Part shown: in pieces, positions 1-21,064 of the stretch
Position numbering within the stretch: position 1 is the stretch's first letter
How the letters are laid out: every line of letters begins with the position of its first letter
NCBI RefSeq assembly: GCF_000316685.1
Contig: NC_019680.1
Coordinates: 2,837,407-2,861,406 of the forward strand
Length of the DNA stretch: 24,000 nucleotides
Source of the DNA: Synechococcus sp. PCC 6312
GTDB taxonomy: Bacteria > Cyanobacteriota > Cyanobacteriia > Thermosynechococcales > Thermosynechococcaceae
Direction: 5' to 3'
Notes under the pieces: generated by a model
Told to the model about the DNA's origin: nothing
Databases searched by the model: none
Seen by the model: only the letters and a program-made list of their open reading frames with translations
Program-made: the position numbers and the translations under genes

Positions 1-20
1 GGGGTGTGGGCGGCATTACT
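1..20. repeat. 3' end of an M3-type GC-rich hairpin repeat, cut by the window edge
   Basis: GGGGTGTGGGCGGCATTACT matches the ends of the M3 copies at 664-690 and 810-836, including the shared ...GGCGGCATTACT boundary. Confidence 0.6.
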
Positions 21-263
21 ATTAAGAATCATTCCTATTTGCAACTATTCAGAATTTTCTCAATAGGTTTTTTGTATTTGCCTAGAAATTTTGAATTAAA
101 TGCAGGAAAAATTCTTAATAAGCTGTTGTTTTTCTGTTACGAGGACTAGTCTTTATAGGTCTCACCCCTAGAACAGAATTATTGCAACTATAGCATAGTT
201 ACTGTCCATCTTTTTCCTGTATTTTAATTTCGATTTGTTTCCTGGTAGGTACTTTCCCCTGTC

Positions 264-500
264 TTACCCTTGCTTGACATGGCCTGGTTTCCAGCATTCG
301 CCTTCTGTGACGCAGTATTTTTGTCCTTCGGATTCTATCCAGATCAGGTCATTTTTGACTTTTGTAATTTCTCCGGTAACTATCTTTGTTCCGGTGATTT
401 TGTGCCAACCGTCTTTTACTGATTCGCTTGGAACTTCTGCTGATACGATTTCGCCAACTTCCATATTTTTTCCTTTAACTCCACTCTGGCTGAAAGACAT
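264..500 (-). CDS. Small hypothetical protein (78 aa; 66 aa if started at the ATG at 464)
   Basis: ORF track. The internal ATG at 464 is preceded by AAAGGA (SD-like) at about 7 nt; the ATG at 500 has no SD. No family recognised. Confidence 0.6.
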   Translation of the reverse strand: MSFSQSGVKGKNMEVGEIVSAEVPSESVKDGWHKITGTKIVTGEITKVKNDLIWIESEGQKYCVTEGECWKPGHVKQG

Positions 501-512
501 TATCTGTTTTTT

Positions 513-836
513 GGAGTGAGGGATGAGCGCAGCGAGGCCTGAACGGATTTATCGAAGCGCGAGCATAGCGAAGCCTGAGTCTGGCGGGAATGAGGGATGA
601 GCGTAGCGAGGCATGAATGGGAGCATGGCCGGAATGGGAGCCGAAGGCGGGAATGGAGAGGGGTGGGTGCCGGGGCGTGGGCGGCATTGATGGGAGTGAG
701 GGATGAGCGACAGCGAGGCCTGAACGGATTATCGAAGCGCGAGCATAGCGAAGCCTGAGTCTGGCGGGAATGAGGGATGAGCGTAGCGAGGCATGAATGG
801 GGAGAGGGGCGGGTGCCGGGGCGTGGGCGGCATTAC
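513..836. repeat. Tandem duplication (period about 180 bp) of a G/A-rich element (M5); each copy ends in an M3 hairpin
   Basis: GGAGTGAGGGATGAGCG...GGCGGGAATGAGGGATGAGCGTAGCGAGGCATGAATGG occurs at 513 and again at 693. Copy 1 carries about 37 extra nt (about 625-660) made of two more GAGC..GGAATGG subunits. Both copies end in GGGTGCCGGGGCGTGGGCGGCATT. Confidence 0.9.
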
Positions 837-1006
837 TTTCTTTTCTGATTCGATGCTTAATTATCCCTGGCCTGGAAGTTGTCGAGCGAGCGTAGCGAAG
901 TGAGGGGGGGGCGCAGGGGGTACTCCCCCCGATTTTCCATGTCTGTCATCCCAACGAGTCCCTGGCCTGGAACAGATGTGTTGTTCTAGGGGTGGATGAT
1001 TGCCAT

Positions 1007-1030
1007 AAAAAAAACCAGTCTTTCGACTGG
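1007..1030 (-). terminator. Intrinsic terminator (minus strand)
   Basis: Hairpin CCAGTC-TTTC-GACTGG (1015-1030), preceded on the plus strand by an A8 run, which is a U-run after the hairpin on the minus strand. Confidence 0.7.
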
Positions 1031-1040
1031 CTGTTGGTTG

Positions 1041-1160
1041 TTATTGGCGTGTTTCGCACTCTGAGTCTGTGAGACAGTCTGCTGTGAACAGAGGCATTGG
1101 CCCGCCGAGTGAGTGAATGCAAAGAGCTATGAATAGGAGGGTGAGATATTGCTTGAGCAT
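1041..1160 (-). CDS. Candidate 39-aa small secreted/membrane peptide (below the ORF-track cutoff)
   Basis: Hand translation: MLKQYLTLLFIALCIHSLGGPMPLFTADCLTDSECETRQ*. It has a hydrophobic N-terminus. It sits between an M1 element and a terminator, exactly like the other cassettes, and it has the same leader (ACGGCGTAGTGTTTGG) seen upstream of the 5391 and 3985 starts. Confidence 0.4.
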   Translation of the reverse strand: MLKQYLTLLFIALCIHSLGGPMPLFTADCLTDSECETRQ

Positions 1161-1174
1161 TTTGGCTACCAAAC

Positions 1175-1398
1175 ACTACGCCGTAGTTAGACACCCCAAC
1201 GGAACGCCGTTAGACCGTGTTATCGCTCCCCGACCTTGGGAGGGGCTGACGACCAGGGGGAGGAAGGGAAGCGATTAGATGGACTTACGGTGCAGCCATA
1301 GCTGAGGGCTTGCCCCTTGAAGTGGGGTGTATCATCCTACGGAGTGTTTCGGTGCGGTCGTTATTGGGACGGGTGGGGTGCCGGGGCCAGGGCGGCGT
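1175..1398. repeat. Structured repeat block A: M1 (about 1175-1335) + M3 hairpin (1371-1398)
   Basis: Outer helix ACACCCC (1191-1197) / GGGGTGT (1324-1330). Conserved junctions CGGAAC and CTTGAAG. The M3 hairpin is GTGCCG-GGGCCAGGG-CGGCGT. Confidence 0.8.
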
Positions 1399-1417
1399 TT
1401 TCATGGCCTGGAGACAA

Positions 1418-1446
1418 TAAAAAAAGCCCCAGATTTCTCCAGGGCT
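1418..1446 (-). terminator. Intrinsic terminator (minus strand) after the 1455-1664 gene
   Basis: AGCCC...GGGCT stem with an A-run on the plus strand (U-run on minus), followed on minus by ATTGTCTCC, a variant of the junction motif. Confidence 0.55.
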
Positions 1447-1454
1447 GTTTGAAT

Positions 1455-1664
1455 TTATGCGTCATGGATTAAAACGATTGATTCTGTGATTTGTTCTGCC
1501 AGATACCCTCGCCGCCGAAGAAACTTAGCGAATGCTTCTGTTTCCTCAGGGTCGCAGTAATAGGCTTCGCAACCGTATTTCTCCGAGTAGAAAGGCTTAA
1601 AGATCGGATTTTTGCTTTCAGAACGGAGAGCTTCAGTCGTGTCCATAAAAGAAACCTCATACAC
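1455..1664 (-). CDS. Small hypothetical protein (69 aa from GTG 1664; 63 aa from ATG 1646)
   Basis: ORF track. Protein-like composition (…KPFYSEKYGCEAYYCDPEETEAFAKFLRRRGYLAEQI…). Terminator immediately downstream and an M1 element immediately upstream. Confidence 0.65.
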   Translation of the reverse strand: MYEVSFMDTTEALRSESKNPIFKPFYSEKYGCEAYYCDPEETEAFAKFLRRRGYLAEQITESIVLIHDA

Positions 1665-1677
1665 ATTACTCTTTTTT

Positions 1678-1988
1678 GGAGAGCAGCCACGGAATGCACT
1701 TAGGGAGACTTGCCGCCGAGAGATTCAGGGATTAGTGAAGGGGTGTTCTGGCGGCTTAGTCGAACTTAGTGGACAGCGGAAGCTGAGGGCTTGTCCCTTG
1801 AAGTGAGATGCTACCTTGGCGAATCATGTGTGCGGGGGGCAGGGGGTGGCGAATCCCCTTAGCACAACTGGAGCAGCCCCTTGGGGGGCGAATAGCGAGG
1901 GGGGACAAAAGCCCGTCCGATTAGGACGGTTCAGTTCTGACATCGTGGACGGTGGCAGCGGGTGGGGTGCCGGGGTGTGGGCGGCATT
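1678..1988. repeat. Structured repeat block B: M1 (about 1678-1818) + M2 (about 1830-1955) + M3 (1959-1988)
   Basis: M2 (…CAGGGGG…CCCCTTAGCACAACTGGAGCAGCCCCTTGGGGGGCGAATAGCGAGGGGGG…AGCCCGTCCGATTAGGACGGTTCAGTTCTGACA) is near-identical to 4190-4322 and 5565-5668. The M3 consensus is GGGTGGGGTGCCGGGGTGTGGGCGGCAT. Confidence 0.85.
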
Positions 1989-2144
1989 TATGTCCTGAGT
2001 AAGAGAGTGTGGGTCATGGTCTGAGTAGTTGCATCGGAAGGAACTGCATATCCATTTTTGTTCTGTCCCGATTGGCATCACGGCACAGCCGCAGAGTGGG
2101 CAGTTCTTGAATTTGTCCAGGTTTTCTAACTTCTTTTTTTTCAT
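1824..2144 (-). CDS. Small zinc-ribbon-like protein whose ORF runs on into repeat block B
   Basis: N-terminal MKKKKLENLDKFKNCPLCGC…CSSFRC gives a CxxC…CxxxxC arrangement. From about residue 50 the reading frame is the reverse complement of M3/M2 (…AAHTPAPHPLPP…), so the true C-terminus is uncertain. Confidence 0.55.
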   Translation of the reverse strand: MKKKKLENLDKFKNCPLCGCAVMPIGTEQKWICSSFRCNYSDHDPHSLTQDINAAHTPAPHPLPPSTMSELNRPNRTGFCPPSLFAPQGAAPVVLRGFATPCPPHT

Positions 2145-2195
2145 TCTTCTTGTTTTGCTATAACAACACTTTTTCTGAAGGACTTTTTTATTTTG

Positions 2196-2292
2196 GGTAG
2201 GAAAGGGAGTTTGAGGGAAGGGAACAGGCCCTCATTGGTGGGTGGGGTGCCGGGGTTGCAAACGAGAGAAGGAGTGCAGCAAGGGCGGCATT
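2196..2292. repeat. M2b + M3 (loop-expanded variant)
   Basis: TAGGAAAGGGAGTTTGAGGGAAGGGAACAGGCCC…TGGTGGGTGGGGTGCCGGGG parallels 3396-3450. The GTGCCG/CGGCAT stem encloses an inner hairpin TTGCA…TGCAG. Confidence 0.75.
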
Positions 2293-2370
2293 CGGGAGAG
2301 AGAGAATTGAACGCACTTGTGTTGGCGAAGTCGAATATCTTGGCCTGTGGTACCAATAATTTCTTTTTGT

Positions 2371-2571
2371 TTATTCAGATTCAACATCGAAATAGGGTTC
2401 ACATCCGGCAGCAATTAAGACTTGATTACCTACCCTGGACATTGACTTGCTTCTAGGGCTATTTGTTATCCCCCATGCCTTAGCACAATCAGCAATGTCA
2501 TCAAATGTTATTCCTCCACCTCCTTCTGATTCCCAGAGTTTCTTGAAGGTATTTTTTGTGTAAACTGTCAT
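2371..2571 (-). CDS. Small hypothetical protein (66 aa)
   Basis: ORF track. Its start overlaps the stop of the upstream 34-aa ORF (TCATGA), which suggests translational coupling. Confidence 0.6.
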   Translation of the reverse strand: MTVYTKNTFKKLWESEGGGGITFDDIADCAKAWGITNSPRSKSMSRVGNQVLIAAGCEPYFDVESE

Positions 2572-2672
2572 GATGTTTTTCCTCTAATGGATTGGTTGTC
2601 TTCGTAGTTGTGATAGTTATCAGCGTAATAGTCGCCTTCATCCCAAGCGGGTTGATTGGGCTGTTCGTCCAT
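2568..2672 (-). CDS. Candidate 34-aa acidic peptide (below the ORF-track cutoff)
   Basis: Hand translation: MDEQPNQPAWDEGDYYADNYHNYEDNQSIRGKTS*. AAAGGA SD 8 nt upstream. The stop overlaps the next start, and the GTCCTGCGG junction motif lies upstream. Confidence 0.4.
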   Translation of the reverse strand: MDEQPNQPAWDEGDYYADNYHNYEDNQSIRGKTS

Positions 2673-2737
2673 TATTTTTATCCTTTAGCGACACTATTCC
2701 GCAGGACATTTTGATTTCCTTGACCTGGGAAGGGGAC

Positions 2738-3106
2738 TTAGACCCGCACAACCCGAACTGGCTTGCCAGCCGCCTGAGCCTCGCTGACCATATTGGCTGT
2801 GCCACGGCTCACGCCGTCCCAGAACACAACGGCTGCGTCACACGCCTGAGCCATGCTCCGGTTCCGAACCGGCCCAGCCGAGCGACCGAAAGCAGCCCAC
2901 TCAGCCGGGAACCGCTCAACCGCAAAACCACGCTCTTGAGCGTAACGCTCGCCAAGTGCATCTGCGCCACGACAGGCACCGGAAAGCACAACCACCTCAA
3001 AGCCCTGAGCCAACTTGTTGGCAAGCAAGGCATCGAGCCGCTCACAGAGCAAACCAAAATCACTGAACTGCCGAGAGCCAGCGATAACGACACGAAAGGG
3101 AGCCAT
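2738..3106 (-). CDS. SLOG-superfamily / DUF2493-like Rossmann-fold protein (122 aa)
   Basis: VVIAGSRQF…VVLSGACRGADALGERYAQE…PAEW…GRSAGPVRNRSMA…AVVFWDGVSRGT resembles the DUF2493/YspA-type SLOG pattern recalled from plasmid and phage proteins. Strong SD GGAGG upstream. Confidence 0.8.
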   Translation of the reverse strand: MAPFRVVIAGSRQFSDFGLLCERLDALLANKLAQGFEVVVLSGACRGADALGERYAQERGFAVERFPAEWAAFGRSAGPVRNRSMAQACDAAVVFWDGVSRGTANMVSEAQAAGKPVRVVRV

Positions 3107-3139
3107 GCGACCTCCAAAGAAAAAAAGAACAGCGTCTCT

Positions 3140-3660
3140 TTGACGACCCCCGGAACGCCGTTACCAAAACTTACCGCTCCCCGACCGACCCTGGAGGGAG
3201 GGGCTGAAGGTGCTTGCACCGTAAGGAAAGCGGCTAGTTTTGGTTACGGGGCAGTGCCATGCACTGAGGCTTTACGCCTTGAAGTGGGGTCGTATCCTGG
3301 AGGCTGCTGAGGTTCCCCTCCTGGGAGGGGTTAGGGGTGGGAGCGTGAACGGAGGTGAACACCACTTCACGGGGGTGCGGGGGGGCCTCCCCGCTATAGG
3401 AAAGGGGGTTTGGGGGAACGGAACGGGCCCCCAATGGGTGGGGTGCCGGGGCTGCGGCGATAAGGCTTTTGGTTTGTGAGAGAGGTTTATTCCGCAGGGG
3501 CGGCATTTGAGAGGGTTTGGGATAGGTTGCACTGGCCTGGGAAAGGCGGCCGGAAACGGCGACAGATTTTGATTTGGTGGGTAATGTTTATTCCGTTTCC
3601 GGCCGCCCGTTAATCTTGGCGTAGTCTGATAGGGGAACGGTACGGTGAGGTTTTGTAATT
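3140..3660. repeat. Structured repeat block C: M1 (3140-3295) + unique G-rich hairpins + M2b (3396-3436) + M3 long form (3436-3506) + M4 (3545-3607)
   Basis: M1 outer helix ACGACCCC (3142-3149) / GGGGTCGT (3285-3292). M4 is a 15-bp perfect inverted repeat, GGCGGCCGGAAACGG (3545-3559) / CCGTTTCCGGCCGCC (3593-3607). The segment 3436-3672 is about 95% identical to 4346-4583. Confidence 0.85.
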
Positions 3661-3663
3661 CAC

Positions 3664-3688
3664 AAAAAAAAGCCAGCCGAAGCTGGCC
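3664..3688 (-). terminator. Intrinsic terminator (minus strand) of the 3695-3985 gene
   Basis: GCCAGC-CGAA-GCTGGC hairpin with a preceding A8 on plus (U8 after the hairpin on minus). Confidence 0.8.
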
Positions 3689-3694
3689 TATTCG

Positions 3695-3985
3695 TTACCG
3701 TTGTTGCTGCTGTTCTACTTTTTGATTTTCTTGAATATTTTCTGTAATTGCCACAAAACCGCAGCTAATTGTTAGAACTAGAACTGGCCAAACCATTTTT
3801 TCTACTGTTTTGGCGTAGCTGTATCGCCTAGCCTTAAAATTTTTGCCCATTTCTACTTTTAATCTAACTTTTCTAAATTTACGATCTAATTCATTCCATT
3901 CTTTAACTAGACCGTTCCAACTGAAATCAAATACTTTAACGGTACGTTTGCCGTTTTTATCGTCACGAATCATTGCTTTACGCAT
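3695..3985 (-). CDS. Small hypothetical protein with a C-terminal TM segment (96 aa)
   Basis: ORF track. Hydrophobic stretch MVWPVLVLTISCGFVAI. Flanked by M1 upstream and a terminator downstream. Confidence 0.7.
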   Translation of the reverse strand: MRKAMIRDDKNGKRTVKVFDFSWNGLVKEWNELDRKFRKVRLKVEMGKNFKARRYSYAKTVEKMVWPVLVLTISCGFVAITENIQENQKVEQQQQR

Positions 3986-4002
3986 TGTAATTTACCAACA
4001 CA

Positions 4003-4575
4003 ACGGCGCTTGGATAGCACAGCACGGAACCGTCCTAGATTTTCTTATCGCTCCCCGACCCTTGGGAGGGGCTGACGTTGCTTGCAACGGAAGGAAAGCG
4101 ATTAGAAAATGTTGGTCGGCACTGCCCTAGCAGTGAGGGAGGGTGAGCCTCGAACCCGACCTTGAAGGCTGTGCTACCTTGCAAAAGCCTGTGTCGGGGG
4201 GGCAGGGGGAAGTCACCCCCTTAGCACAACTGGAGCAGCCCCTTGGGGGGCGAATAGCGAGGGGGGAGAAAAGCCCGTCCGTTAGCGTTAGCGTGCCGTA
4301 AGGCAATTAGGACGATTCAGTTCTGACACTGTGGGCAGTGGCAGCGGGTGGGGTGCCGGGGCTGCGGCGATAAGGCTTGTGGTTTGCGAGAGATGTTTAT
4401 TCCGCAGGGGCGGCATTTGAGAGGGTTTGGGATAGGTTGCACTGGCCTGGGAAAGGCGGCCGGAAACGGCGACAGATTTTGATTTAGCGGGTAATGTTTA
4501 TTCCGTTTCCGGCCGCCCGTTAATCTTGGCGTAGTCTGGCACGGGAATGGGACGTTGTGAGGTTTTGCAACTCAC
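4003..4575. repeat. Structured repeat block D: M1 (4003-4185) + M2 (4190-4322) + M3 long form (4346-4417) + M4 (4455-4517)
   Basis: M1 outer helix TAGCACAGC (4015-4023) / GCTGTGCTA (4168-4176). M1+M2 are near-identical to block E except for a swapped apical hairpin. M3+M4 are near-identical to block C. Confidence 0.85.
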
Positions 4576-4603
4576 AAAAAAAAGACCGGCCTTTCGGCCA
4601 GTC
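4576..4603 (-). terminator. Intrinsic terminator (minus strand) of the 4612-4773 ORF
   Basis: GACCGGCC-TTTC-GGCCAGTC hairpin (one mismatch) preceded on plus by A8. Confidence 0.75.
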
Positions 4604-4611
4604 CCTTTTCT

Positions 4612-4773
4612 TTAGTCTTGACTTATAGACTTAGCCTCTTCTTTAGTTAGATAGATTCCGAAGTCTCCTTCTACTTCGACCCAGACTCCACCTTCTTCTA
4701 AAGCCGCCGCCTCGTCTTTGGTTAGATAGATTCCGAAATATTCATCTATCTGAAACCATTCTGTATATGCCAT
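4612..4773 (-). CDS. Candidate 53-aa acidic protein with an internal duplicated motif (below the ORF-track cutoff)
   Basis: Hand translation: MAYTEWFQIDEYFGIYLTKDEAAALEEGGVWVEVEGDFGIYLTKEEAKSISQD*. The motif (Y/D)FGIYLTK(D/E)EA occurs twice. A terminator follows directly. Confidence 0.5.
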   Translation of the reverse strand: MAYTEWFQIDEYFGIYLTKDEAAALEEGGVWVEVEGDFGIYLTKEEAKSISQD

Positions 4774-4779
4774 CTGGTA

Positions 4780-4990
4780 TTACCAAACTCTACGCCGGGG
4801 TCCTACAGGGGAGCCGACTGGTCAAGGGGTAAAGTGGAGGGCTGCGGAATAAATTTGATGTTACTAAGACTTGCCGCCCCTGTCTCCGCTTATTGCAGAT
4901 CACTCTTTGTTCTCAGGCGGCTTAGTCGCAGTTAATCAAGTTTTATGCCGTAAAGCCTGGAACGTACCTTGACCACCCTCCATCACAACG
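4780..4990. repeat. Divergent M1-like structured leader (block F)
   Basis: Shares the leader ACCAAACTCTACGCC with block A, and the helix GACTTGCCGCC…GGCGGCTTAGTCG with M1 of block B. Also contains GGTCAAGG/CCTTGACC and TGGAGGG/CCCTCCA complementarities in crossing order. Confidence 0.45.
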
Positions 4991-5187
4991 AAGGATATTT
5001 ATATTCCCTGTATAATAGAAAGGCAGAGTTGCCACCCAACGCGAACAACCACCCATCCGGCGACCCTTTACTGTACTTAGCGAAAAATGTTTAGAAAGGT
5101 AATTTCTTTGGGCGGGCCTGGGAGAACGAAACAGACGTTCACCCTTACATATCTTCCCTATTTGATATGCCGAAGTCGGAAGAGGAT

Positions 5188-5212
5188 AAAAAAACGGGCG
5201 GCAGAGCCGCCC
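5188..5212 (-). terminator. Intrinsic terminator (minus strand) of the 5221-5391 gene
   Basis: GGGCGGC-AGA-GCCGCCC hairpin preceded on plus by A7 (U-run on minus). Confidence 0.8.
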
Positions 5213-5220
5213 CATATTTT

Positions 5221-5391
5221 TTAGCATTTATATTTAATACTAAAATCATCATCCTCCTCTTCAACTTTCATATAATCAACAAACTCTTTATTCTTCATTA
5301 CTTTCTTTACAAACTTATTTACCTCTTTCAAACTAAACAAATATCCACACTCTTTCTCAAACAACTTAAACTTCACTTCATAATAAAACAT
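5221..5391 (-). CDS. Small AT-rich hypothetical protein (56 aa from ATG 5391; the ORF track extends to 5427)
   Basis: ORF track. The M1 repeat starts at 5410, and the conserved leader ends about 18 nt before ATG 5391, which matches the spacing at the 3985 start. I therefore prefer the internal start (MFYYEVKFKLFEKE…). Confidence 0.6.
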   Translation of the reverse strand: MFYYEVKFKLFEKECGYLFSLKEVNKFVKKVMKNKEFVDYMKVEEEDDDFSIKYKC

Positions 5392-5409
5392 ACAAACAAC
5401 CAAAACACT

Positions 5410-5745
5410 ACGGCGCTTGGATAGCACAGCACGGAACCGTCCTAGATTTTCTTAGCGGCTGGCTTGCCAGACGGTTAGAAAATGTTGGTCGGCACTGCCC
5501 TAGCAGTGAGGGAGGGTGAGCCTCGAACCCGACCTTGAAGGCTGTGCTACCTTGCAAAAGCCCGTGTCGGGGGGGCAGGGGGAAGTCACCCCCTTAGCAC
5601 AACTGGAGCAGCCCCTTGGGGGGCGAATAGCGAGGGGGGGAAAAAGCCCGTCCGATTAGGACGGTTCATTGGGGGGGGTTGGGGGGGGAACGCCCCCCTA
5701 ATCTGGTATGCAGAACAAAGTGACGCTACCAGATTAGGTCTGAAA
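5410..5745. repeat. Structured repeat block E: M1 (5410-5560) + M2 (5565-5668) + G/C homopolymer hairpin + 12-bp inverted repeat (about 5698-5740)
   Basis: Outer helix 5422-5430 / 5541-5549. The apical hairpin is replaced by GGCTGG-CTTG-CCAGAC. The inverted repeat is CCTAATCTGGTA…TACCAGATTAGG (12 bp perfect). Confidence 0.85.
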
Positions 5746-5827
5746 CTTCGGCATAGGAAAATAGCGAGAGAGCCAGTCGTGCCTTATTAAAATCCACGAA
5801 TTCTGTAAGTCTTACTGGTTGCTTGTT

Positions 5828-6733
5828 TCAGGCTGATTTCGGCATATCAGATTCTTGGATATATGGCATAACTTCGTGTAGGACTTCTTTCATAAGTTCA
5901 GACTCACGGAGGCTTCCGCAGATACCGCTATAGAGGTTTGGCTTCCATCCATTAAGTTCATCGCAGTAGATCATGGTGTTGCAATGAAGTTTGGCCATCA
6001 TGATCATATTTCTACGGATCATGGCCTTAATGGCCCACTTAATCTTGAGGTCATCTTTGAGGTGCAGTTGACTGACTGGACCGGACTTGCCAGGGAGGTT
6101 ACGAAGTTTGGATTCAATGCGGTAGTATGTCCATTTTTGGGTATTGTACTTGCGGATATTGGCATACTTAGGAGCGATCCATTCCTTTTTGAAGGACTGA
6201 ATGAGGGTCTTAATTTCGGGTTGGCTCCAGACTTTGATCGGCTTTGCCGACTTATGGATAACGAGCTTATCGCCTGTTAGCCATTCCGACTCGGTTTGGG
6301 TGACGATTTCTACGAAGGACTTGAGTTCGTTGTGAGAGAACTTGTAAGTATAGACTTCACGCCCACTCCAGTTTTCTTTCTGGCTTTTATTGCTGCTTTT
6401 TACATGGTCAGCAACGATTAGTGTTTTCTGGGCCAACTCCCATGCTTTTTTTAGGGTTTCGACTCGTTCCTCCCAGGTTTCGATCACGTTCAGAACATAG
6501 GTCATGGTTACAATATCGGCGGGTTCGAGTGGGGTGGGGAAGTAGTAGGGGTCATAGCATTTTGACTTAAAGCCAAGTTCATTCAGCCATTCGGTGTCTT
6601 TTCCATACCCGCAGCCAAAATCCAGGTGCGACTGGCTTGGGTGGATCATCATGTTTTTGATCATCAATCTGACGGTACTTGAAGGATGCTTTCGCTTTGG
6701 AGCAGACTTATGGCGATTAGACTTGATTAGCAT
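5828..6733 (-). CDS. Class I SAM-dependent methyltransferase, N-terminal domain, with an uncharacterised C-terminal half (301 aa)
   Basis: Motif I LDFGCGYGKD followed by an acidic-loop-like …CYDPY…. The substrate (DNA, RNA or small molecule) cannot be told from the sequence. Confidence 0.8.
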   Translation of the reverse strand: MLIKSNRHKSAPKRKHPSSTVRLMIKNMMIHPSQSHLDFGCGYGKDTEWLNELGFKSKCYDPYYFPTPLEPADIVTMTYVLNVIETWEERVETLKKAWELAQKTLIVADHVKSSNKSQKENWSGREVYTYKFSHNELKSFVEIVTQTESEWLTGDKLVIHKSAKPIKVWSQPEIKTLIQSFKKEWIAPKYANIRKYNTQKWTYYRIESKLRNLPGKSGPVSQLHLKDDLKIKWAIKAMIRRNMIMMAKLHCNTMIYCDELNGWKPNLYSGICGSLRESELMKEVLHEVMPYIQESDMPKSA

Positions 6734-8224: not shown

Positions 8225-8694
8225 ACATCCTAGCCGAAGGACAATAAAAAACTCTGGGTGTTAGCCAGAGCTTGGTTTTGGTTAGGAACCTCATCGCAGC
8301 CTATCCGAAGGTTAACCAAAAACCCCCACCATTTCTGATGAGGGCTTTTGATTGTCCATAACCTTGCCTGTAAGCACCTCATCCGAAGGAAAAGAAAAAA
8401 CCCTCATTATTCAATGAGGGAATCTTCCGTGTGTAGAGTTTGGTTTTATGACATCCTAGCCGAAGGACAATAAAAAAACCTCACCATTTCTGGCGAGGCT
8501 GGCCACCAAATGTATTCAGTTGTTGCACGACATTTTGTTACAACACAGTTTTTTTCTCCCTTCGATACAGCATTTGCACCAATCGCACTGAATTATTTTT
8601 GATACACCCCCACCGAAGGACAATAAAAAACCCCCATCGTTTGATGGAGGATTTTGTGTAGAGTTCTGGTTTTCTTCACCCGTTACCGCAGGAC
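8225..8694 (-). repeat. Tandem array of five to six ORF-less 'hairpin + T-run + ATTGTCCTTCGG' junction units
   Basis: On the plus strand, CCGAAGGAC (or CCGAAGGTT / CCGAAGGAA / CCGCAGGAC) occurs at 8234, 8305, 8383, 8460, 8613 and 8686. Each of the first five is followed by AATAAAAAA and a different hairpin (for example CCCTCATT-ATTC-AATGAGGG at 8401-8420). Confidence 0.8.
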
Positions 8695-8808: not shown

Positions 8809-10086
8809 TTAGAAGACATAGGCATAACCGTCTTTTTTGTGCATGGCTTTGCAGTATTTGTGGCTGATACCTGCCACTCTTCCAGTTGCCGTGGCTATGT
8901 CAAAACTGCCAGAGGCTCGACAAAGAACCCGACCCACATAGAAGCCGATTTTCTTGCCTGCCGTAACGGTCGCTCTGACAATATCGCCAGTTTGAAAGCC
9001 TTTATGAATCTGTACTCTGGACTTATGGCGAGTCGAAAAACCAAACTTGTCAGTCCCACACATCTGCCGTGTGCCGTGACCTTTGGCGGTAATGAGCAAC
9101 GGCTTTGAAGTCAGGACTTTGAGCGCATCAACCTGACCCACACAAGCGGCATCCAACCAATGAGCTTTGGGCAGGTCTAAGCGGGTGCGGTTGAATTTAG
9201 TTTGTCCACCCGTCCCTGTCGTGAGTGGCAACCCCGTCGCTTTCAGTGCATTGAATAACGCCCATCGGGTAGAGTTGACTGCTGCTGCATCCTTGAGAGG
9301 GGCTTTAGCCTTTCTCAGAATCCGTTGTAGTAACTCAGGCTTACCGAATAGGAAGTCTCGAATGTCCTGATTTCCCTTGCTTTGGTTACAGGCATGACAA
9401 GCCATTGTGAGGTTAGAAACTCGGTCAGTTCCGCCTCTCGACCTGGGGTGAATATGCTCTACTTCTAAAGGGACATCTTTAGTTCCACAGTAAGTACATT
9501 TTCTGCCCCACTTTTCTAGTAGATACTCTCTGACTTCGTAGCCTTGTAATTCCCCTTGTTGGTACTCAATGCCTGAGATTTCAGGATTTTGTAACTTCTG
9601 TAGGTCAAACCGTACCAACTCTTGAGCGATACTGCCAAGGGGAGCTAGATTTCTGAGCCGATTTACCCAGGTCAGCACCGTATCAACTCGATGTTTCAGG
9701 CTAGGAGCAAGCCAACCATCAGGGCGATTACGATTTAGAAAACGGGGCTGACGATAACGGGTTTTCCGATTTCGCCTCCCACGCCGTAATTGACGACGAG
9801 ACAGCAAGGCATCTTTAATCTGTTGCCCCCGGTGCTGCAATTCGGCTCCAAAGATGATTTTGTTGCCTTGTTTAATTGCAATTCCAGTAACTTTAGAACC
9901 GGGGTCTAATTTGAGTTCTAAGTCTTGCACGGGGACATCAGGATGAGCTTCTTTCAAGATGAGGGTAAATGGAAAACGACGATATACTGCCGCTTTTCCT
10001 TGGTTGAGTAGATGACGAGCCTTCCCAGGATGAACGGGATCAAGCGGTCGTTTTTGGGTATCGAGAACAAAGATAAAATTGGACAT
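8809..10086 (-). CDS. iscB: IscB RNA-guided nuclease (OMEGA system; RuvC-HNH-RuvC with an N-terminal PLMP domain), 425 aa
   Basis: PLMP-type N-terminus VLDTQKRPLDPVHPGKARHLL. RuvC-I LKLDPGSKVTGIAI. Arg-rich bridge helix RRQLRRGRRNRKTRYRQPRFLNR. HNH CTYCG…EVEHIHPRSRGG…CHACNQSKGN. RuvC-III HWLDAACVG. ATG at 10086 with a GGAG SD; the track's GTG at 10155 lies in the omega-RNA region. Confidence 0.93.
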   Translation of the reverse strand: MSNFIFVLDTQKRPLDPVHPGKARHLLNQGKAAVYRRFPFTLILKEAHPDVPVQDLELKLDPGSKVTGIAIKQGNKIIFGAELQHRGQQIKDALLSRRQLRRGRRNRKTRYRQPRFLNRNRPDGWLAPSLKHRVDTVLTWVNRLRNLAPLGSIAQELVRFDLQKLQNPEISGIEYQQGELQGYEVREYLLEKWGRKCTYCGTKDVPLEVEHIHPRSRGGTDRVSNLTMACHACNQSKGNQDIRDFLFGKPELLQRILRKAKAPLKDAAAVNSTRWALFNALKATGLPLTTGTGGQTKFNRTRLDLPKAHWLDAACVGQVDALKVLTSKPLLITAKGHGTRQMCGTDKFGFSTRHKSRVQIHKGFQTGDIVRATVTAGKKIGFYVGRVLCRASGSFDIATATGRVAGISHKYCKAMHKKDGYAYVF

Positions 10087-10340
10087 TGAAAGTCTCCGTA
10101 AAACGGGTAATGTGTTCCTCGCCAATGTTTTTAAGGCTTGTTTGGCTAACGACACTGCTTTACCCCTCGTAAGGCTGTTTAATCGCTAACGACAGAGCTA
10201 CAAACTGGAAAGCATTTGTAGGTGTCATGACCTTAAAAACGTAGTCAGTCAAGACTTAGGCTGGTCAACTAACTGAAGCTAGAGGCATGAAGCCCCATTA
10301 CTTCAGTGCGGGGTGCTGACTCAGACTGAAAGACCGTAGC
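10087..10340 (-). ncRNA. Putative omega-RNA (HEARO-type) scaffold of the IscB element; 5' end and guide not resolved
   Basis: Position only. IscB omega-RNAs are encoded directly 5' of, and overlapping, the iscB start. The region is ORF-poor with local hairpins (for example CTTCAGT…ACTGAAG at about 10272-10310). I could not verify the consensus structure by eye. Confidence 0.55.
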
Positions 10341-10422
10341 TCTACGCCTTTTCCCAGGTAAAGTAGTAGCCATTTTCTTCAATGATTTTTAATATTTCTG
10401 ACTGTTTCATTTGGGTTACTCC

Positions 10423-10578
10423 TTAGCGATTGATTTCTTTCCAGGCTTGTTCTGCTTCTTTTTTGGTTTTGTAGAAACCGTAAAAGCAACTGCATACCAG
10501 GAAGCACCATTTCCCAATGTCTTTATGGGTTAGGCTGGCAAAGCGTTCTACATCGGCTTGGGTCAGTTGGAATATCAT
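10423..10578 (-). CDS. Candidate 51-aa hypothetical protein (below the ORF-track cutoff)
   Basis: Hand translation: MIFQLTQADVERFASLTHKDIGKWCFLVCSCFYGFYKTKKEAEQAWKEINR*. The junction motif CCGAAGGAC (10606) lies upstream. An AAGGAG follows its stop, ahead of a further 22-codon ORF (10342-10410). Confidence 0.4.
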   Translation of the reverse strand: MIFQLTQADVERFASLTHKDIGKWCFLVCSCFYGFYKTKKEAEQAWKEINR

Positions 10579-10664: not shown

Positions 10665-10997
10665 TTAACTGGTGTAACGTTCAAATTCTTCAGCAATATC
10701 TTCAGCTTCTAGCTGAGATTCAATGATCTGGACTTTTTTGTTTGTGATCAGGACGTACATTCCGAGAGAGTCTTGGGGCAGTTTCAGCACTTCGATGACA
10801 TTGTGGGTGATCTGGCCAATCCAGTAGTAGTTGTCTGATTTTTCCCAGATTTGTGACAGGAAGTGTTTTTCGGCTTCATCTGGGTTGTCGAAGATGTTGG
10901 TTATCACTCCCTCGATCAGTGTTAGCCATTGCCCCTGGATTTCAGGATGGGTGCTTCTGGGGGAGGCTTGGCAGATTCCGGTATAGTTTTTGTCCAT
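10665..10997 (-). CDS. Hypothetical protein (110 aa)
   Basis: ORF track. AAGGA SD upstream. Bracketed by the two GTTCTAGGGGT palindromes. Confidence 0.75.
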   Translation of the reverse strand: MDKNYTGICQASPRSTHPEIQGQWLTLIEGVITNIFDNPDEAEKHFLSQIWEKSDNYYWIGQITHNVIEVLKLPQDSLGMYVLITNKKVQIIESQLEAEDIAEEFERYTS

Positions 10998-11040
10998 TTT
11001 TTGTTCCTTACGACTGCCAATCCGAAGGACTTTTAGTTGT

Positions 11041-11074
11041 TTGTTCTAGGGGTGGGCCATTACCCCTAGAACAA
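11041..11074. repeat. Perfect 13-bp-arm palindrome TTGTTCTAGGGGT-N8-ACCCCTAGAACAA
   Basis: Read directly from the sequence. Followed on the plus strand by CTTTTTT. Confidence 0.9.
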
Positions 11075-11086: not shown

Positions 11087-11686
11087 TCAGCGGTTCATTC
11101 TACGGAAGTCCCAAGGTTTTATCTGGTCTGACTTCCAGACACCAACGCCTTCTTTTCGGGCTTCTTGTTCGGCTTGATCAACTTTGGCAAAACTAGGGCA
11201 GTTATTAGCGAACTTGCGGTAAGCGTAGGCCATGCCTTTGCGGGTCATGGTTTCTTGGACAAGGGTATTGCCCGTCCAGACTTCAGCGACCTTACGGCCA
11301 TAGCGGTCAGTGTTGGTAATGCGAAGGTCAACACGGTAGTCAGCTTTTTTTAAGATATTGCGGAGTGTATTACGGGATGCTTCGCCCAAGGGTTGTTTAA
11401 GTTCTGGTGCGTCAATACAGGCGAAGCGGACTCGGATTTCTTCGTTGCCATTGGTGGCTCGGATGGTATCGCCATCATGGATAGAGCGTTGAACAACTTG
11501 CCATTCGGTTAGTCCAGTTCTGGTTTGGGTGGGTGTTCCGATTTCGTTGACAACGGCTTCACGTTCGGATGGACTAATCATACGTCCACTAGTTGTTCTT
11601 GGATTGAGGGCTTCAATCTCGGACATTGGGACAGCTTGCGATACGCATCCGGTTAGGAAAATTGCTAGGAGTGGCCAATAACGCAT
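11087..11686 (-). CDS. Secreted thermonuclease (staphylococcal nuclease/SNc fold) lipoprotein, 199 aa
   Basis: Lipobox LTGC in MRYWPLLAIFLTGCVSQ. SNase core …DGDTIRA…IRVRFACIDAPE…GEAS…RYGRKVAEVW…. Confidence 0.88.
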   Translation of the reverse strand: MRYWPLLAIFLTGCVSQAVPMSEIEALNPRTTSGRMISPSEREAVVNEIGTPTQTRTGLTEWQVVQRSIHDGDTIRATNGNEEIRVRFACIDAPELKQPLGEASRNTLRNILKKADYRVDLRITNTDRYGRKVAEVWTGNTLVQETMTRKGMAYAYRKFANNCPSFAKVDQAEQEARKEGVGVWKSDQIKPWDFRRMNR

Positions 11687-11784
11687 TTTATAATTGATGA
11701 GCTAATTATAAATGAACTTTAGCATGGTCTTGACTTTCTGAAAAATTGCTGTATAGGGTTGCCGCAGAGTTTTGAGATTTATTT

Positions 11785-12450
11785 ATGCAGCGACTGATGG
11801 TAGCTCTGTTAGCGGTCATGGCCATGGCCATGACCGCTGGCGAAGTATTTGCAAATCCGTTCAAGATTCCCAATTCTACGGGTGATCGGGTAACGTTTCG
11901 GATGGATGGTTTAACGCCTGGTTCTGAGATTCAGGTCGGTGCCGGGGATACGAAAGCGAAACTTACCGCTTATACGATCAACAACTACGGGCGGATTAGT
12001 CCCCCGGCTGGTGCGACCAAGGTACGGAAATGGGGCGATACAACTTGGATCAACCTATCCAGTGCGACCGATCTGACTGATTCGGTCAAGGTTGCAACCG
12101 TTCAAGGTCAGCGTCAGTTTGCGCCTAAAGTGGCGGGTCAAAACTTACCGACTATCCCTTCCTTTATCAAACTTGGTACGGCGTTTTACTGGAATCCTGG
12201 CACTACGCTTCCAACTGATGGAATCTTCATTGAGTTTGATGTTCCGGTACAGCGTGTTGCGAAAGTTAATGCGTGTGGCCAGCTTTCAATCTCGGTTAGT
12301 TCGGTGAACGGCAGTGTCAATTACGTTCCTGCTGTGACGGTAAACGGAACAAGTTATACGATTGCAAGCCTTCCGGTCGGAAATCCGGCTAACTTATCTC
12401 GTTGCGTCAAGTACGGCGAGTCCACTTACGTCCGGTACGTTCCGCAGTAG
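11785..12450 (+). CDS. Secreted protein, paralog 1 of a four-member tandem family (221 aa)
   Basis: Signal peptide MQRLMVALLAVMAMAMTAGEVFA|NP. Family motifs NACGQLS…C.KYGESTYVRYVPQ. Confidence 0.85.
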   Translation: MQRLMVALLAVMAMAMTAGEVFANPFKIPNSTGDRVTFRMDGLTPGSEIQVGAGDTKAKLTAYTINNYGRISPPAGATKVRKWGDTTWINLSSATDLTDSVKVATVQGQRQFAPKVAGQNLPTIPSFIKLGTAFYWNPGTTLPTDGIFIEFDVPVQRVAKVNACGQLSISVSSVNGSVNYVPAVTVNGTSYTIASLPVGNPANLSRCVKYGESTYVRYVPQ

Positions 12451-12458
12451 AGGTACTG

Positions 12459-13076
12459 ATGTTAAGACCTGTCCTATTGGCTTTGTTTTGGTTGTTGGGT
12501 GCGTTGCCTGTGGTAGCGAATCCGGTACGAGTGCCGAGTGCCAGTGGTAACTCGATGCGCGTCAGTTTTGAAGGCTTCAATCCAAACAGTGAGGTACAGG
12601 TCGGCGTTGGCCTACGGCGATACCGAGCATCGCTGTCTATTAAACAGGGTGGGATGTCTTTTTTCCGGTTCACGTCACCTGAAGGAGCGACAGCGGTTCG
12701 TGTGGTTGGCCAAGAGAACTGGACGGCCCTGAGCCTTATTTCAGATCAGACCGCAAACTTGCGGGTCACTGGTACTGGTGAACAGCGTCAGTTTCTGGCG
12801 AAGAATCCGAAGGATTTTTGGTCAACCTTTGTTCCTTCTTTCAACGGGTATATGAAGGTGGGTCGGTCTTTCTTTTATCGGGGCAATGGAGACTCAATCA
12901 TGTTTGAGTTCAATGTCCAGGCTTACCGATTAGCAAAGGCGGATGCGTGTGGGCGAATTTCGCTGCTCTATCCGGTATCGGGTTCACGGGCCATCTCATC
13001 GGTCACGGTTGGCCAAACCTTTTACAGGCTTGACAGCGTTCCGACTGCCAGCAGATTGCCTGAATGTTCTCAATAG
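12459..13076 (+). CDS. Secreted protein, paralog 2 (205 aa from ATG 12459)
   Basis: GAGG SD precedes ATG 12459. Signal peptide MLRPVLLALFWLLGALPVVA|NP. DACGRIS…PECSQ. The track start at 12402 overlaps paralog 1. Confidence 0.8.
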   Translation: MLRPVLLALFWLLGALPVVANPVRVPSASGNSMRVSFEGFNPNSEVQVGVGLRRYRASLSIKQGGMSFFRFTSPEGATAVRVVGQENWTALSLISDQTANLRVTGTGEQRQFLAKNPKDFWSTFVPSFNGYMKVGRSFFYRGNGDSIMFEFNVQAYRLAKADACGRISLLYPVSGSRAISSVTVGQTFYRLDSVPTASRLPECSQ

Positions 13077-13095
13077 TTTTTCTTAGGAGTTGATG

Positions 13096-13824
13096 ATGTT
13101 TAATCGTATTTTTGTCCTTACTGCATTGCTCAGTCTTTTACCGACTGCGGTTTTTGCGGCTCCGACTAAGTTTACGAATCCTACAACCAACCGTGCCGAG
13201 GTAAATATCACTGGTTTTACGGCTGGTCAGGAAGTACCTATCGAATTTCAGAGTGTGACTAAATCGGTAAAAGCGAGTTGCCTGATTGGGTCGGATCGGT
13301 ATGCCTTGGTTTCCAGCGATGTTGCGGCCGAGATTAACCAGCCCTTTGAAGCCTTTGCTACTGCGGGTGGTACCCCTGCCATCAAAGTGAATGGTGGTGA
13401 GAATATTTGGGGTTCTGAGGAAGGTATGACCAATGGCCGTTGTGCCTTTGTTAACGGTACTCGCGTGTTCGTTGCCCCCAACGCACAGGGACAGGCTGTA
13501 CCTGTGACTGGAAACTACGGCCCTTTATTTGTTACCTCAACGGTGAATGCTGAAGGTAATGTAACGGGTAAGAGTTCCCTTTGGGTACGCGTTCCTACCT
13601 GGGATGCAGTACCAGTCCAAATCGTTGGTGGGAATACACAGAAGAAATACAAGGCGAATAGCTGTGGCATCGTCCGGTTTGCAGAAACTGAGACTGCTCC
13701 TTTAGCTCCTACCTTCAAAGTTGGTTCTACCATTTACACCGTTGCTAACTTAAGCACTGCTTACCCGCCCAAGTGCTATAAGACTGGCGAGACTTCTTAC
13801 ACTTTGTTTGTTCCGGCTCAGTAA
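13096..13824 (+). CDS. Secreted protein, paralog 3 (about 242 aa; start at 13093 or 13096)
   Basis: AGGAG SD at 13085-13089. Signal peptide MFNRIFVLTALLSLLPTAVFA|AP. C-terminus NSCGIVRFAETE…PPKCYKTGETSYTLFVPAQ. Confidence 0.88.
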   Translation: MFNRIFVLTALLSLLPTAVFAAPTKFTNPTTNRAEVNITGFTAGQEVPIEFQSVTKSVKASCLIGSDRYALVSSDVAAEINQPFEAFATAGGTPAIKVNGGENIWGSEEGMTNGRCAFVNGTRVFVAPNAQGQAVPVTGNYGPLFVTSTVNAEGNVTGKSSLWVRVPTWDAVPVQIVGGNTQKKYKANSCGIVRFAETETAPLAPTFKVGSTIYTVANLSTAYPPKCYKTGETSYTLFVPAQ

Positions 13825-13840
13825 TAGTTGTGATCTCACT

Positions 13841-13866
13841 GCGGCCTAGCTATAGGCCGCTTTTTT
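13841..13866 (+). terminator. Intrinsic terminator (plus strand)
   Basis: GCGGCCTA-GCTA-TAGGCCGC followed by T6. Confidence 0.85.
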
Positions 13867-13880
13867 GTGTAGGTGAACCT

Positions 13881-14627: not shown

Positions 14628-14642
14628 TTCCTACTGTTATTG

Positions 14643-14667
14643 GGGAGGATTAAACCCTCCCTTTTTC
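14643..14667 (+). terminator. Intrinsic terminator (plus strand)
   Basis: GGGAGG-ATTAAAC-CCTCCC followed by T5. Confidence 0.75.
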
Positions 14668-14784
14668 TATGCGTTACTTTATCTTGCACATGGCGATTGG
14701 ATTTGTTCTAGGGGCATTGCCGTTGGGATTGTTAACGGGGTCACATATTCCAGACCCAGATATATTTTTCAAGGTTCAGAAGGA

Positions 14785-18439: not shown

Positions 18440-18442
18440 GGT

Positions 18443-19570: not shown

Positions 19571-19572
19571 GG

Positions 19573-20610: not shown

Positions 20611-20837
20611 GACTCTGGTTCCATCTCCACGCAGATTAAGGTGGTGTAGCCTTCGTTTTTTCCATCAAACGACACAATGCCTTGGCCAGACATTTGCTCT
20701 ATGAGGGCATTCATCACGCCTTCGGCCACTGCCATTCGGTTTTTGAGGGGATCAGACGAGCCAACGGTGACAGTGAGTTTGACCGTTTCTACCGTTTCGA
20801 TGGTCGTTCCGGGTTTGTATTTGAGCATGAGGGTCAT
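20607..20837 (-). CDS. Small hypothetical protein (76 aa)
   Basis: ORF track. 4-nt overlaps with both neighbours. Confidence 0.65.
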   Translation of the reverse strand: MTLMLKYKPGTTIETVETVKLTVTVGSSDPLKNRMAVAEGVMNALIEQMSGQGIVSFDGKNEGYTTLICVEMEPES

Positions 20838-21061: not shown

Positions 21062-21064
21062 GAT

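Follow-up and report, generated by a model that had tools for sequence, protein, structure and literature searches.

Gene array and repeated element

The window analysed here is the whole stretch of 24,000 nucleotides (nt) from Synechococcus sp. PCC 6312, and the region is a mobile-element-like part of the chromosome of this cyanobacterium. All real open reading frames (ORFs) between 1 and 11.7 kb lie on the minus strand. Among their products are a YAcAr/DUF2493 protein, a methyltransferase related to dnd, an SNase and a SprT-like protein, a gene content that is establishment-like. Small ORFs of this array are preceded by copies of a repeated intergenic element, here called M1, a nucleic-acid element that folds as a single strand and combines covarying helices with conserved unpaired junction residues. 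In the sense of the ORFs, M1 begins 29–36 nt upstream of the start codon (61 nt in copy F), and each small ORF ends in its own intrinsic terminator. No sigma-70-type promoter was found upstream of the array ORFs; the 6 kb examined hold one match, internal to an ORF, against 4.8 expected.

Fold and covariation of M1

Each copy of M1 consists of an outer helix (P1), a long irregular arm with a variable apex (P2) and two short hairpins (P3 and P4). The element is thus a four-way junction, and not the three-way junction proposed in the initial annotation, a reading of the letters of the window that first described it. The five copies reported there (A–E) lie where they were placed, and every helix quoted is present in the sequence; a sixth, divergent copy, F, is found at 4835–4982. 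P1 is ACACCCC/GGGGTGT in A, ACGACCCC/GGGGTCGT in C, and TAGCACAGC/GCTGTGCTA in D and E, and the P4 hairpins include AGGG-CTTGC-CCCT (A) and AGGC-TTTAC-GCCT (C). In copy F, P1 is TGGAGGG/CCCTCCA and P2 contains both of the T.T sites described below.

The helices are joined by the strands CGGAAC, TGAGG and CCTTGAAG, which are unpaired or half-paired. The first and the last had been taken as invariant, which holds except that CGGAAC is replaced by CGGAAT in B and F (4845–4850 in F), and CCTTGAAG by CCTTGACC in F (4967–4974). The T.T mismatch noted inside P2 is indeed conserved; there are, however, two such sites, spaced by exactly 10 nt, and not one. Each arm of P2 reads TA[GC]N6TT, so that the folded arm has a pseudo-two-fold site.

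The covariation claimed for the helices is borne out by an alignment of the five copies. Standard pairs are formed in 86% of the cells, compared to 36–47% when the 3' partners are slid by 1–3 columns, and 24 of the 44 pairs show compensatory changes on both sides, compared to 5–7 after sliding. None of 500 column shuffles matched the observed pairing values. Since P1 occurs in the alignment as five unrelated sequences and the P2 core in five versions, the existence of just two sequence subfamilies does not account for the covariation. Copies D and E are 96–98% identical in both flanks, while their ORFs are unrelated and their P2 apices differ, that of E (CTGG-CTTG-CCAG) being shorter than, and unlike, that of D. 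As these two are near-duplicates outside the P2 apex, the window holds about five independent copies.

A pattern of the M1 core matches four times in the window, against 0.00 expected. With DNA parameters, the z-scores of the element and its flanks are −3.7 for A and −4.9 for D. Segments of 300 nt that contain M1 fold at −62 to −68 kcal/mol, compared to a mean of −35 and to −54 for Frpo2, a single-stranded DNA (ssDNA) promoter of plasmid F, under the same parameters. The energy threshold of −75 given for ssDNA promoters (PMC12672017) is not reached by these segments under the settings used here.

The strand that folds

The folding strand was assessed from the types of mismatches. For this, folds of 17 elements were computed without allowing G.T pairs, and the single mismatches within their helices were typed on the template strand, in a design that is symmetric by construction. 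T.T outnumbered its mirror A.A by 16 to 1 (p = 4.5e-5), A.G outnumbered C.T by 19 to 0 (p = 2.5e-5), G.G outnumbered C.C by 16 to 4 (p = 0.06), and G.T outnumbered A.C by 4 to 1 (p = 0.24); these composition-corrected binomial p-values are optimistic, since the copies are not fully independent. T.T, G.G and A.G taken together exceed A.A, C.C and C.T by 51 to 5 on the template (plus) strand, and window copies A, B, C, D and F by themselves give 16 to 1 (p = 6e-4, optimistic for the same reason). Nearest-neighbour data identify G.G, G.A, G.T and T.T as the most stable mismatches, and their complements as the least stable. The presence of the stable types on the plus strand thus indicates that this strand is under selection to fold. 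It is the template strand of the adjacent ORFs, all of which are on the minus strand. The known Frpo/ssi T-strands of F and ColIb-P9 (sequences from the PMC11541004 supplement), used as a control, lean the same way (21 versus 8). A few wobble positions had earlier been taken as a hint of plus-strand folding; the asymmetry of the mismatches is a much stronger test and points in the same direction.

Other measures of strandedness are less informative. By free energy, the template strand is favoured in 12 of 13 elements under DNA parameters and in 9 of 13 under RNA parameters, a comparison that was dropped as a strand test on account of the small differences and equal z-scores. Counts of G.T pairs in minimum-energy folds were uninformative.

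Extended hairpin and −10-like hexamer

Pairing continues beyond the copy limits given in the initial annotation, which located the element correctly and underestimated its extent. In folds with DNA parameters, sequence lying between M1 and the start codon is paired with sequence on the 3' side of M1 (Table 1). The resulting downstream duplex also covaries, with AAACACT/AGTGTTT, ACACA/TGTGT, CAAACTCT/AGAGTTG, CTCACTCTCTCTC/GAGAGAGAGTGAG, CACACACACA/TGTGTGTGTG and others.

Directly after the 3' strand of P1 lies a hexamer, TATCAT in A (1330–1335), TACCTT in B, D and E, and TATCCT in C, in which T1, A2, C4 and T6 are invariant among copies A–E and positions 3 and 5 are free. The hexamer of copy F, TATAAT (5011–5016), is located inside a 12×12 mismatched bubble. 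TAnnnT is present on the 3' arm in all six window copies and in all 11 related elements examined, where it takes the forms TACACT, TAAACT, TATACT, TAGAGT, TATAAT, TACAAT, TACCGT and TAAAAT. Across all elements T1, A2 and T6 are kept while positions 3–5 vary, the way in which a −10 element is conserved. No TAnnnT is present at the mirrored position of the sense strand. Of 16 minimum-energy folds, 12 place the beginning of the hexamer at the final pair of the duplex upstream of it, and the leaders implied by the position of the hexamer are mostly 19–28 nt long. An A-rich stretch, GnAAAAGCC, follows the hexamer in D, E and the relatives, and is absent from A, B and C. A TAnnnT at the boundary between duplex and single strand, together with a downstream duplex that copies the 5' untranslated region (UTR), are features of a hairpin-borne promoter. 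When Frpo2 of plasmid F was folded with the same parameters, −35- and −10-like hexamers were likewise found on the 3' arm.

Two further assignments were rejected. One is TTGAAG as a true −35 in the window, on account of its spacing of 7–8 nt; the other is P2 as a −35/−10 duplex, as the TTGCAA strings in it stem from CTTG tetraloops and are missing in A and E.

Table 1. Coordinates of M1 copies, paired flanks, array genes and associated features in the window
Feature	Position	Strand	Details
39-codon ORF after copy A	1041–1160	−	terminator 1013–1032
Copy A, extended hairpin	1169–1352	+	CCAAACACT (1169–1177) pairs with AGTGTTTCGG (1343–1352); CCGTAG pairs with CTACGG
Copy A, M1	1191–1330	+	P1 1191–1198/1323–1330, CGGAAC, P2, P3, P4, CCTTGAAG
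Copy A, T.T sites of P2	1210/1285 and 1220/1275	+	
ORF after copy B	1455–1664	−	ATG 1646 or GTG 1664; terminator 1425–1446
Copy B, flanks	1661–1666 and 1826–1831	+	ACACAT (1661–1666) pairs with ATGTGT (1826–1831)
Copy B, M1	1681–1817	+	P1 degraded; −10-like TACCTT 1812–1817
YAcAr/DUF2493 (SLOG) gene after copy C	2738–3106	−	two further small ORFs down to 2371
Copy C, M1	3143–3298	+	−10-like TATCCT 3293–3298
Copy C, 3' flank	3299–3306	+	GGAGGCTG pairs with CAGCGTCTC (3130–3138), or with the Shine-Dalgarno complement CCTCC
96-codon ORF after copy D	3695–3985	−	terminator 3670–3689
Copy D, M1 and extended hairpin	3995–4197 (core 4015–4176)	+	−10-like TACCTT 4175–4180, then GCAAAAGCC
Copy D, flanks	3995–4002 and 4190–4197	+	CCAACACA (3995–4002) pairs with TGTGTCGG (4190–4197); GCTTGG pairs with CCTTGC via tandem T.T
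53-codon ORF after copy F	4612–4773	−	terminator 4584–4599
Copy F, M1 and extended hairpin	4784–5031 (core 4835–4982)	+	sixth, divergent copy
Copy F, flanks	4784–4791 and 5025–5031	+	CAAACTCT (4784–4791) pairs with AGAGTTG (5025–5031)
56-codon ORF after copy E	5221–5391	−	terminator 5196–5212
Copy E, M1 and extended hairpin	5400–5570 (core 5422–5549)	+	−10-like TACCTT 5548–5553
Terminator-like hairpin CCGTCCTAATCGGACGG and T-run	5648–5664	−	within repeat module D3, just upstream of copy E in ORF sense
AAA_22, YdjM, HerA/VirB4/CedD-like ATPase (375 aa), HlyD-like, TolC-like module	16339–22024	−	

Related elements and database searches

Three clear homologues of M1 are located on the template strand of L016, a 60.7-kb metagenome contig that is syntenic with the window (AAA_22, YdjM, ATPase and SNase, then ArdC, small genes, YAcAr and DUF4326). 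They contain an outer helix, P1, CGGAAC, a simple P2 hairpin, a P4 loop GAGCGNAGCGA, CCTTG[GT]AG and the return strands; P2 is short and P3 is absent. On the 3' side, TACACT, TAAACT or TATACT is followed by GGGAAAGCCGG, after which comes the pairing partner of the 5' UTR complement, and all helices covary. Simpler long hairpins precede YAcAr, DUF2493, DUF4326 and other small genes in Merismopedia glauca (L018), in metagenome contig L026 and in Microcystis plasmid p1 (L015). Their 3' arm carries TTGACA or TTGACG, a spacer of 15–16 nt, TACAAT, TACCGT or TATAAT, (G)AGAAAAGC and a covarying downstream duplex; TTGACA/TTGACG itself lies within a duplex.

Plasmid p1 (Microcystis aeruginosa NIES-2481) also contains an unannotated ORF of 163 codons at 11297–11788 on its plus strand, with only seven A in 492 nt; the hairpin in front of this ORF bears TTGACA-15-TATAAT on the template strand. 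The encoded protein has a GCARGVD motif that is reminiscent of SLOG/DprA-like proteins. A gene-start hairpin with the motif of the L016 homologues (GAGGGAGCGCAGCGACCTTG, then ATACAA) was found at 420–530 of a high-GC viral contig (L019, IMG/VR UViG_3300025327_001816), and a broader family extending beyond cyanobacteria is possible on the basis of this hairpin. The 5' end of ColIb-P9 Frpo1 (CGGAGGAGCGAAGCTCCTT; PMC11541004 supplement) resembles positions 10500–10530 of L016 (AGAGGGAGCGAAGCGACCTT), with a GCGAAGC mini-hairpin in both; this resemblance may reflect convergence or chance.

Searches of Rfam with window positions 1–6000 and the related loci gave no match to M1, either at the gathering score or at E≤5; HEARO (10107–10320) is the only family found in the window. 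No match was obtained by BLAST against PLSDB, a plasmid collection in which IncF and IncI plasmids are represented, in near and distant modes, with the window region and the elements of L016 and L018. The M1 core pattern had no match in viral contigs and 10 matches in genome contigs, none of them cyanobacterial and the source genome not among them. The covariance model matched none of these 10, which are thus attributed to chance. The three matches of a P2-apex pattern in metagenome contigs are all chance occurrences in coding sequence. The covariance model built on the five copies (R1) recovered its training copies, a weak match to copy F (E = 5.3) and one marginal match in Microcystis (E = 0.05), and did not reach the L016 homologues with their short P2 and lacking P3. 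A joint MAFFT alignment of the window and L016 copies misplaced the CGGAAC junction and was not used for a model. No M1-like elements were found within 10 kb of the ATPase homologues at five further loci (L021–L025). DUF2493, DUF4326 and SprT are not mentioned among the leading-region gene families in the supplements of PMC11541004, and no paper in the literature searched links ssDNA promoters with cyanobacteria.

Genomic context and neighbouring modules

The AAA_22–YdjM–ATPase–HlyD–TolC module at 16339–22024 recurs on plasmids of Microcystis, Gloeocapsa, Nostoc and Synechococcus elongatus, and the same ATPase module is also found in integrative elements with an integrase, an AAA_25 protein and an S24 repressor. 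This YdjM/HerA/VirB4-like module could constitute an uncharacterised DNA-translocation apparatus.

The intergenic modules of the array are 57–65% GC, and their plus strand is much richer in G than in C; the GC content of most small ORFs is 30–45%. The ORF behind copy E (5221–5391, minus strand) contains 1% C in its sense strand, so that 170 nt of the template contain almost no G; low C contents are likewise found in the other small array ORFs (13–16%), and the YAcAr genes of the window and its relatives contain just 12–15% A. One may speculate that such base skews restrict the pairing of a single-stranded template with itself.

A complete HEARO (omega) RNA (161.6 bits) is located at 10107–10320, directly upstream of a 448-codon ORF of IscB type (RRXRR and HNH). 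The pair (8809–10320, minus strand) is inserted between the SprT-like and SNase genes in the same orientation. The only block that runs counter to the general orientation of the window is at 11785–14871 on the plus strand, with 4–5 consecutive ORFs of 221–265 codons that have no Pfam or NCBIfam match.

M1 is accompanied by other repeated modules. A second conserved module, GGGTGGGGTGCCGGGG...GGGCGGCAT, is found on the plus strand at 655–688, 801–834, 1366–1399, 1955–1988, 2239–2290, 3435–3510 and 4345–4420, and is conserved in L016 on the template strand (approximately 8625–8685, 10385–10445 and 10985–11045). The module folds into a GTGCCG/CGGCAT hairpin, in which G.T occurs on the plus strand, the insert varies and GGGG tracts face one another; a quadruplex could arise from its four G-tracts. 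Its position is always between the terminator of the previous gene and the putative promoter hairpin. Repeat module D3 (78–88% identity) follows copies B, D and E on the plus strand, at 1833–1933, 4195–4295 and 5568–5668. The terminator-like hairpin CCGTCCTAATCGGACGG listed in Table 1 for copy E occurs again at 1913–1929, upstream of copy B, and this hairpin with its T-run in D3 would insulate the units of B and E from upstream transcription.

The segment 500–900 on the plus strand, upstream of the minus-strand ORF 264–500, contains G+A-rich repeats with spacings of 74 and 106 nt, a GC skew of +0.5 and no M1. It holds six GCGNAGC motifs of the GNA mini-hairpin type, each in the plus strand and similar to the P4 loop GAGCGNAGCGA in the M1 homologues of L016. 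Such mini-hairpins were discarded as a DNA-specific marker, as they are not enriched over the whole window (12 versus 7.9 expected).

Comparison with known systems

To our knowledge, ssDNA promoters have been shown experimentally only in enterobacterial IncF and IncI1 plasmids, and were mostly identified elsewhere by homology to Frpo. The leading regions of such plasmids carry several of these promoters, one per operon, in which a hairpin reconstitutes −35 and −10 elements that are inactive as double-stranded DNA (PMC12672017; PMC11541004). M1 shares with Frpo/ssi of IncF and IncI1 (classes 1–3) a large imperfect hairpin of the template strand in an intergenic position upstream of a gene or operon, the presence of several copies in a region where all genes are co-oriented, promoter hexamers on the 3' arm surrounded by mismatches, the lack of an active promoter in duplex form (judged from sequence for M1), and a bias of stable mismatch types toward the folding strand. 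A side-by-side reading of M1 with five published Frpo/ssi sequences revealed no obvious similarity. At its apex M1 has a four-way junction, marked by conserved junction strands and a pair of T.T mismatches, whereas Frpo has an A+T-rich UP-like stem there, and the −35-like TTGAAG of M1 is 7–8 nt from the hexamer instead of ~17 nt. M1 also differs in being a chromosomal element of a cyanobacterial host, with no relaxase or oriT found in the window, and in preceding nearly every single small gene, each of which has its own terminator.

The closest descriptive analogue is EGeRS1 of the Bacillus pLS20-family plasmids, in which five repeated GC-rich regions, clearly higher in GC than the plasmid itself, lie upstream of establishment genes such as ardC (PMC8708921). 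Their multiple inverted repeats are predicted to form a four-ramification branch adjoining the ribosome-binding site, the regions showed no constitutive double-strand promoter, and read-through is blocked in the native orientation only (PMC8708921). The regions are 325–750 bp long and sequence-conserved among copies, and the authors found no promoter boxes in the fold; as the transferred strand of pLS20 is the non-template strand, they argue against an ssDNA promoter (PMC8708921). M1 is likened to EGeRS1 by description only, and the mechanism is probably different.

Other folded or repeated elements are more distant. Single-strand origins of the ssoA type in rolling-circle plasmids are strand- and orientation-specific folded ssDNA, in which host RNA polymerase reads promoter-like boxes of a stem; they occur once per plasmid, are not tied to gene starts and yield a short primer. 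Their conserved RSB and CS-6 motifs are absent from M1. The CUP repeats of the IncN plasmid pKM101 are conventional double-strand promoters under repressor control, and we know of no report of a covarying multi-helix fold in them. They form a long repeated region with a promoter before each unit of the leading region, with recombination between repeats (alluded to in PMC6294495). Integron attC sites resemble M1 as a folded single strand whose structure is kept while its sequence varies, with conserved unpaired bases and a location between small co-oriented ORFs. M1 differs from attC in its larger size, in lacking R/L boxes and a nearby integrase, and in its promoter-like features and terminators.

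Proposed function

On balance we favour, with some reserve, the interpretation that the M1 hairpins are a cyanobacterial, structurally distinct variant of Frpo-type ssDNA promoters. The initial annotation had offered a folded RNA or ssDNA; a folded single strand is confirmed, and the evidence favours ssDNA of the two. M1 would be the apical four-helix domain, or clamp, of a hairpin promoter that exists only in the single-stranded state of the plus strand. In every unit this strand, the template, would fold back from just upstream of the start codon, with the P1–P4 junction clamping both arms and P1 serving as the duplex just upstream of a ready-made −10 fork. The 3' arm would present TAnnnT at the boundary between duplex and single strand or in a mismatched zone, and its distal part would pair with the complement of the 5' UTR of the gene as the downstream duplex. 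Host RNA polymerase would bind the fork, with the 3' arm as non-template and the 5' arm as template, and run out of the base of the hairpin into the gene, giving a leader of about 20–28 nt. Once the complementary strand is made, the hairpin and the partner context of the hexamer would be lost, leaving the gene silent between terminators. The net effect would be a burst of establishment or anti-defence-type gene expression upon entry of ssDNA. The fold, its strand, the position and conservation of the hexamer, the terminator of each gene and the lack of a double-strand promoter are observed; we infer a single-stranded stage of this polarity, the binding of RNA polymerase and the position of the transcription start.

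Several observations weigh against this interpretation. Independent copies are few, about five in the window and about a dozen relatives, some of them recognised partly by the motif itself. The −35-like element of the window is non-canonical, with TTGAAG only 7–8 nt from the hexamer and mostly unpaired, compared to TTGGAG or TTGTAG at 19–21 nt in L016. In D and E the hexamer zone is largely paired, with two T.T mismatches as its sole interruptions. The duplex form might contain a weak −10, as the sense strand reads TAGTGT or TAGAGT 12–13 nt before the ATG in A, E and F. The z-scores do not separate the strands (−4.9 for plus versus −5.2 for minus). Neither a relaxase nor an oriT was seen in the window or the related loci, and the translocase, being HerA/VirB4/CedD-like, might move double-stranded DNA. 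The similar-looking EGeRS1 regions of pLS20 lie on the non-template strand (PMC8708921). Finally, the simple model gives no role to the conserved CGGAAC and CCTTGAAG junction strands or to the two T.T mismatches, which suggests that they are recognised by a protein or by the polymerase.

These unexplained features are accommodated in a more specific proposal, which is tentative and less likely to hold in full. M1 could represent a new structural class, in which a four-way DNA junction replaces the −35/UP region, the invariant strands CGGAAC, TGAGG and CCTTGAAG and the two T.T mismatches one helical turn apart are read by a dimeric protein of the host or the element or by RNA polymerase, and the −10 is offered as a ready-made fork. 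Anti-defence or establishment expression would then be coupled to ssDNA entry through an unrecognised transfer system or natural transformation in cyanobacteria. We know of no such mechanism, and of hardly any conjugation biology, in these organisms.

Alternative explanations

M1 might act instead as RNA of the sense (minus) strand, as a structured 5' leader (a riboswitch, a thermometer or an EGeRS1-like insulator) that controls translation, stability or read-through. The element directly precedes start codons, all of its helices are open to the complementary RNA as well, at a similar z-score, and EGeRS1 is likewise GC-rich and four-branched and blocks read-through in one orientation (PMC8708921). 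However, the folding strand is antisense to the adjacent ORFs, which argues that M1 is not a sense-strand leader. Such a leader would have to accommodate the least stable mismatches (A.A, C.C and C.T) in its helices, the 51 to 5 asymmetry being in the wrong direction. No promoter is present between the upstream terminator-like hairpins and M1, the TAnnnT and the AAAAGCC stretch on the other strand would have no role, and Rfam gave no match. We regard a sense-strand leader as unlikely.

The evidence for strand and fold applies equally to a priming site of the ssi/sso type on incoming or rolling-circle ssDNA, where RNA polymerase or primase would make a primer and expression would be incidental. 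Frpo performs both transcription and priming according to Masai and Arai (1997), as reported in PMC12672017, and G-rich multi-hairpin modules flank M1. Such a site does not need six copies at a fixed distance from start codons or a duplex that copies the 5' UTR, and the terminators of the individual genes point to transcription units. Priming as the sole function is thus distinctly unlikely; it is compatible with, and not exclusive of, an ssDNA promoter.

The plus strand, being the one selected to fold, might also be expressed as a structured noncoding RNA or ribozyme antisense to the array, and it resembles RNA in its CUUG-type tetraloops and conserved junctions. Conserved promoters are lacking 5' of M1 on this strand, though, and the sole conserved promoter-like hexamer is 3' of it; plus-strand terminators are not present, and the fixed spacing to a start codon on the opposite strand would be unexplained. 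No Rfam family matches, all self-cleaving classes included. The riboswitch- or ribozyme-like reading of the initial annotation is not supported by the Rfam searches, even at E≤5, or by a folding strand that is antisense to the ORFs, and an antisense RNA appears improbable.

It is very improbable that M1 is a selfish palindromic repeat, similar to a miniature inverted-repeat transposable element, that has spread through intergenic regions with no service to the genes. The element is multi-copy and GC-rich in a more AT-rich setting, D and E are near-identical, and the neighbouring modules D1, D3 and D6 are multi-copy as well. Yet highly diverged copies maintain the fold through compensatory changes, all copies have a single orientation and a fixed distance from start codons, and searches of the rest of the window and of plasmid, phage-contig and genome collections found no others.

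The least credible alternative is a folded recombination site of an attC-like gene-cassette system, for which the unidirectional array of small, unrelated ORFs, the folding strand antisense to them (as in attC bottom strands), the stems with kept structure, varied sequence and conserved unpaired bases, and the swapping of modules (D and E having the same flanks with another apex and ORF) might speak, but CTTCAAG and GTTCCG do not fit RYYYAAC/GTTRRRY (no R''/R' boxes) and show no complementarity to one another. The window ORFs scanned include no integron integrase, each ORF is followed by a terminator, and this reading would leave the −10 hexamer and the downstream duplex unexplained.

Implications

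If the M1 hairpins are ssDNA promoters, the strategy would be phylogenetically broad, as it would extend, with a different architecture, to cyanobacteria and to an integrated element. A search rule that does not depend on homology would follow, namely the template-strand bias of stable mismatches, TAnnnT at a duplex end and a duplex copying the 5' UTR. The widespread cyanobacterial YdjM/HerA-VirB4-like/HlyD-like/TolC-like module and the accompanying small genes would belong to elements with a single-stranded stage, and DNA transfer in cyanobacteria would become experimentally approachable. The small ORFs without assigned function behind each M1 would be candidate anti-defence genes. The conserved T.T pair and junction strands would offer a concrete and testable case of the recognition of folded DNA by a protein or by the polymerase.

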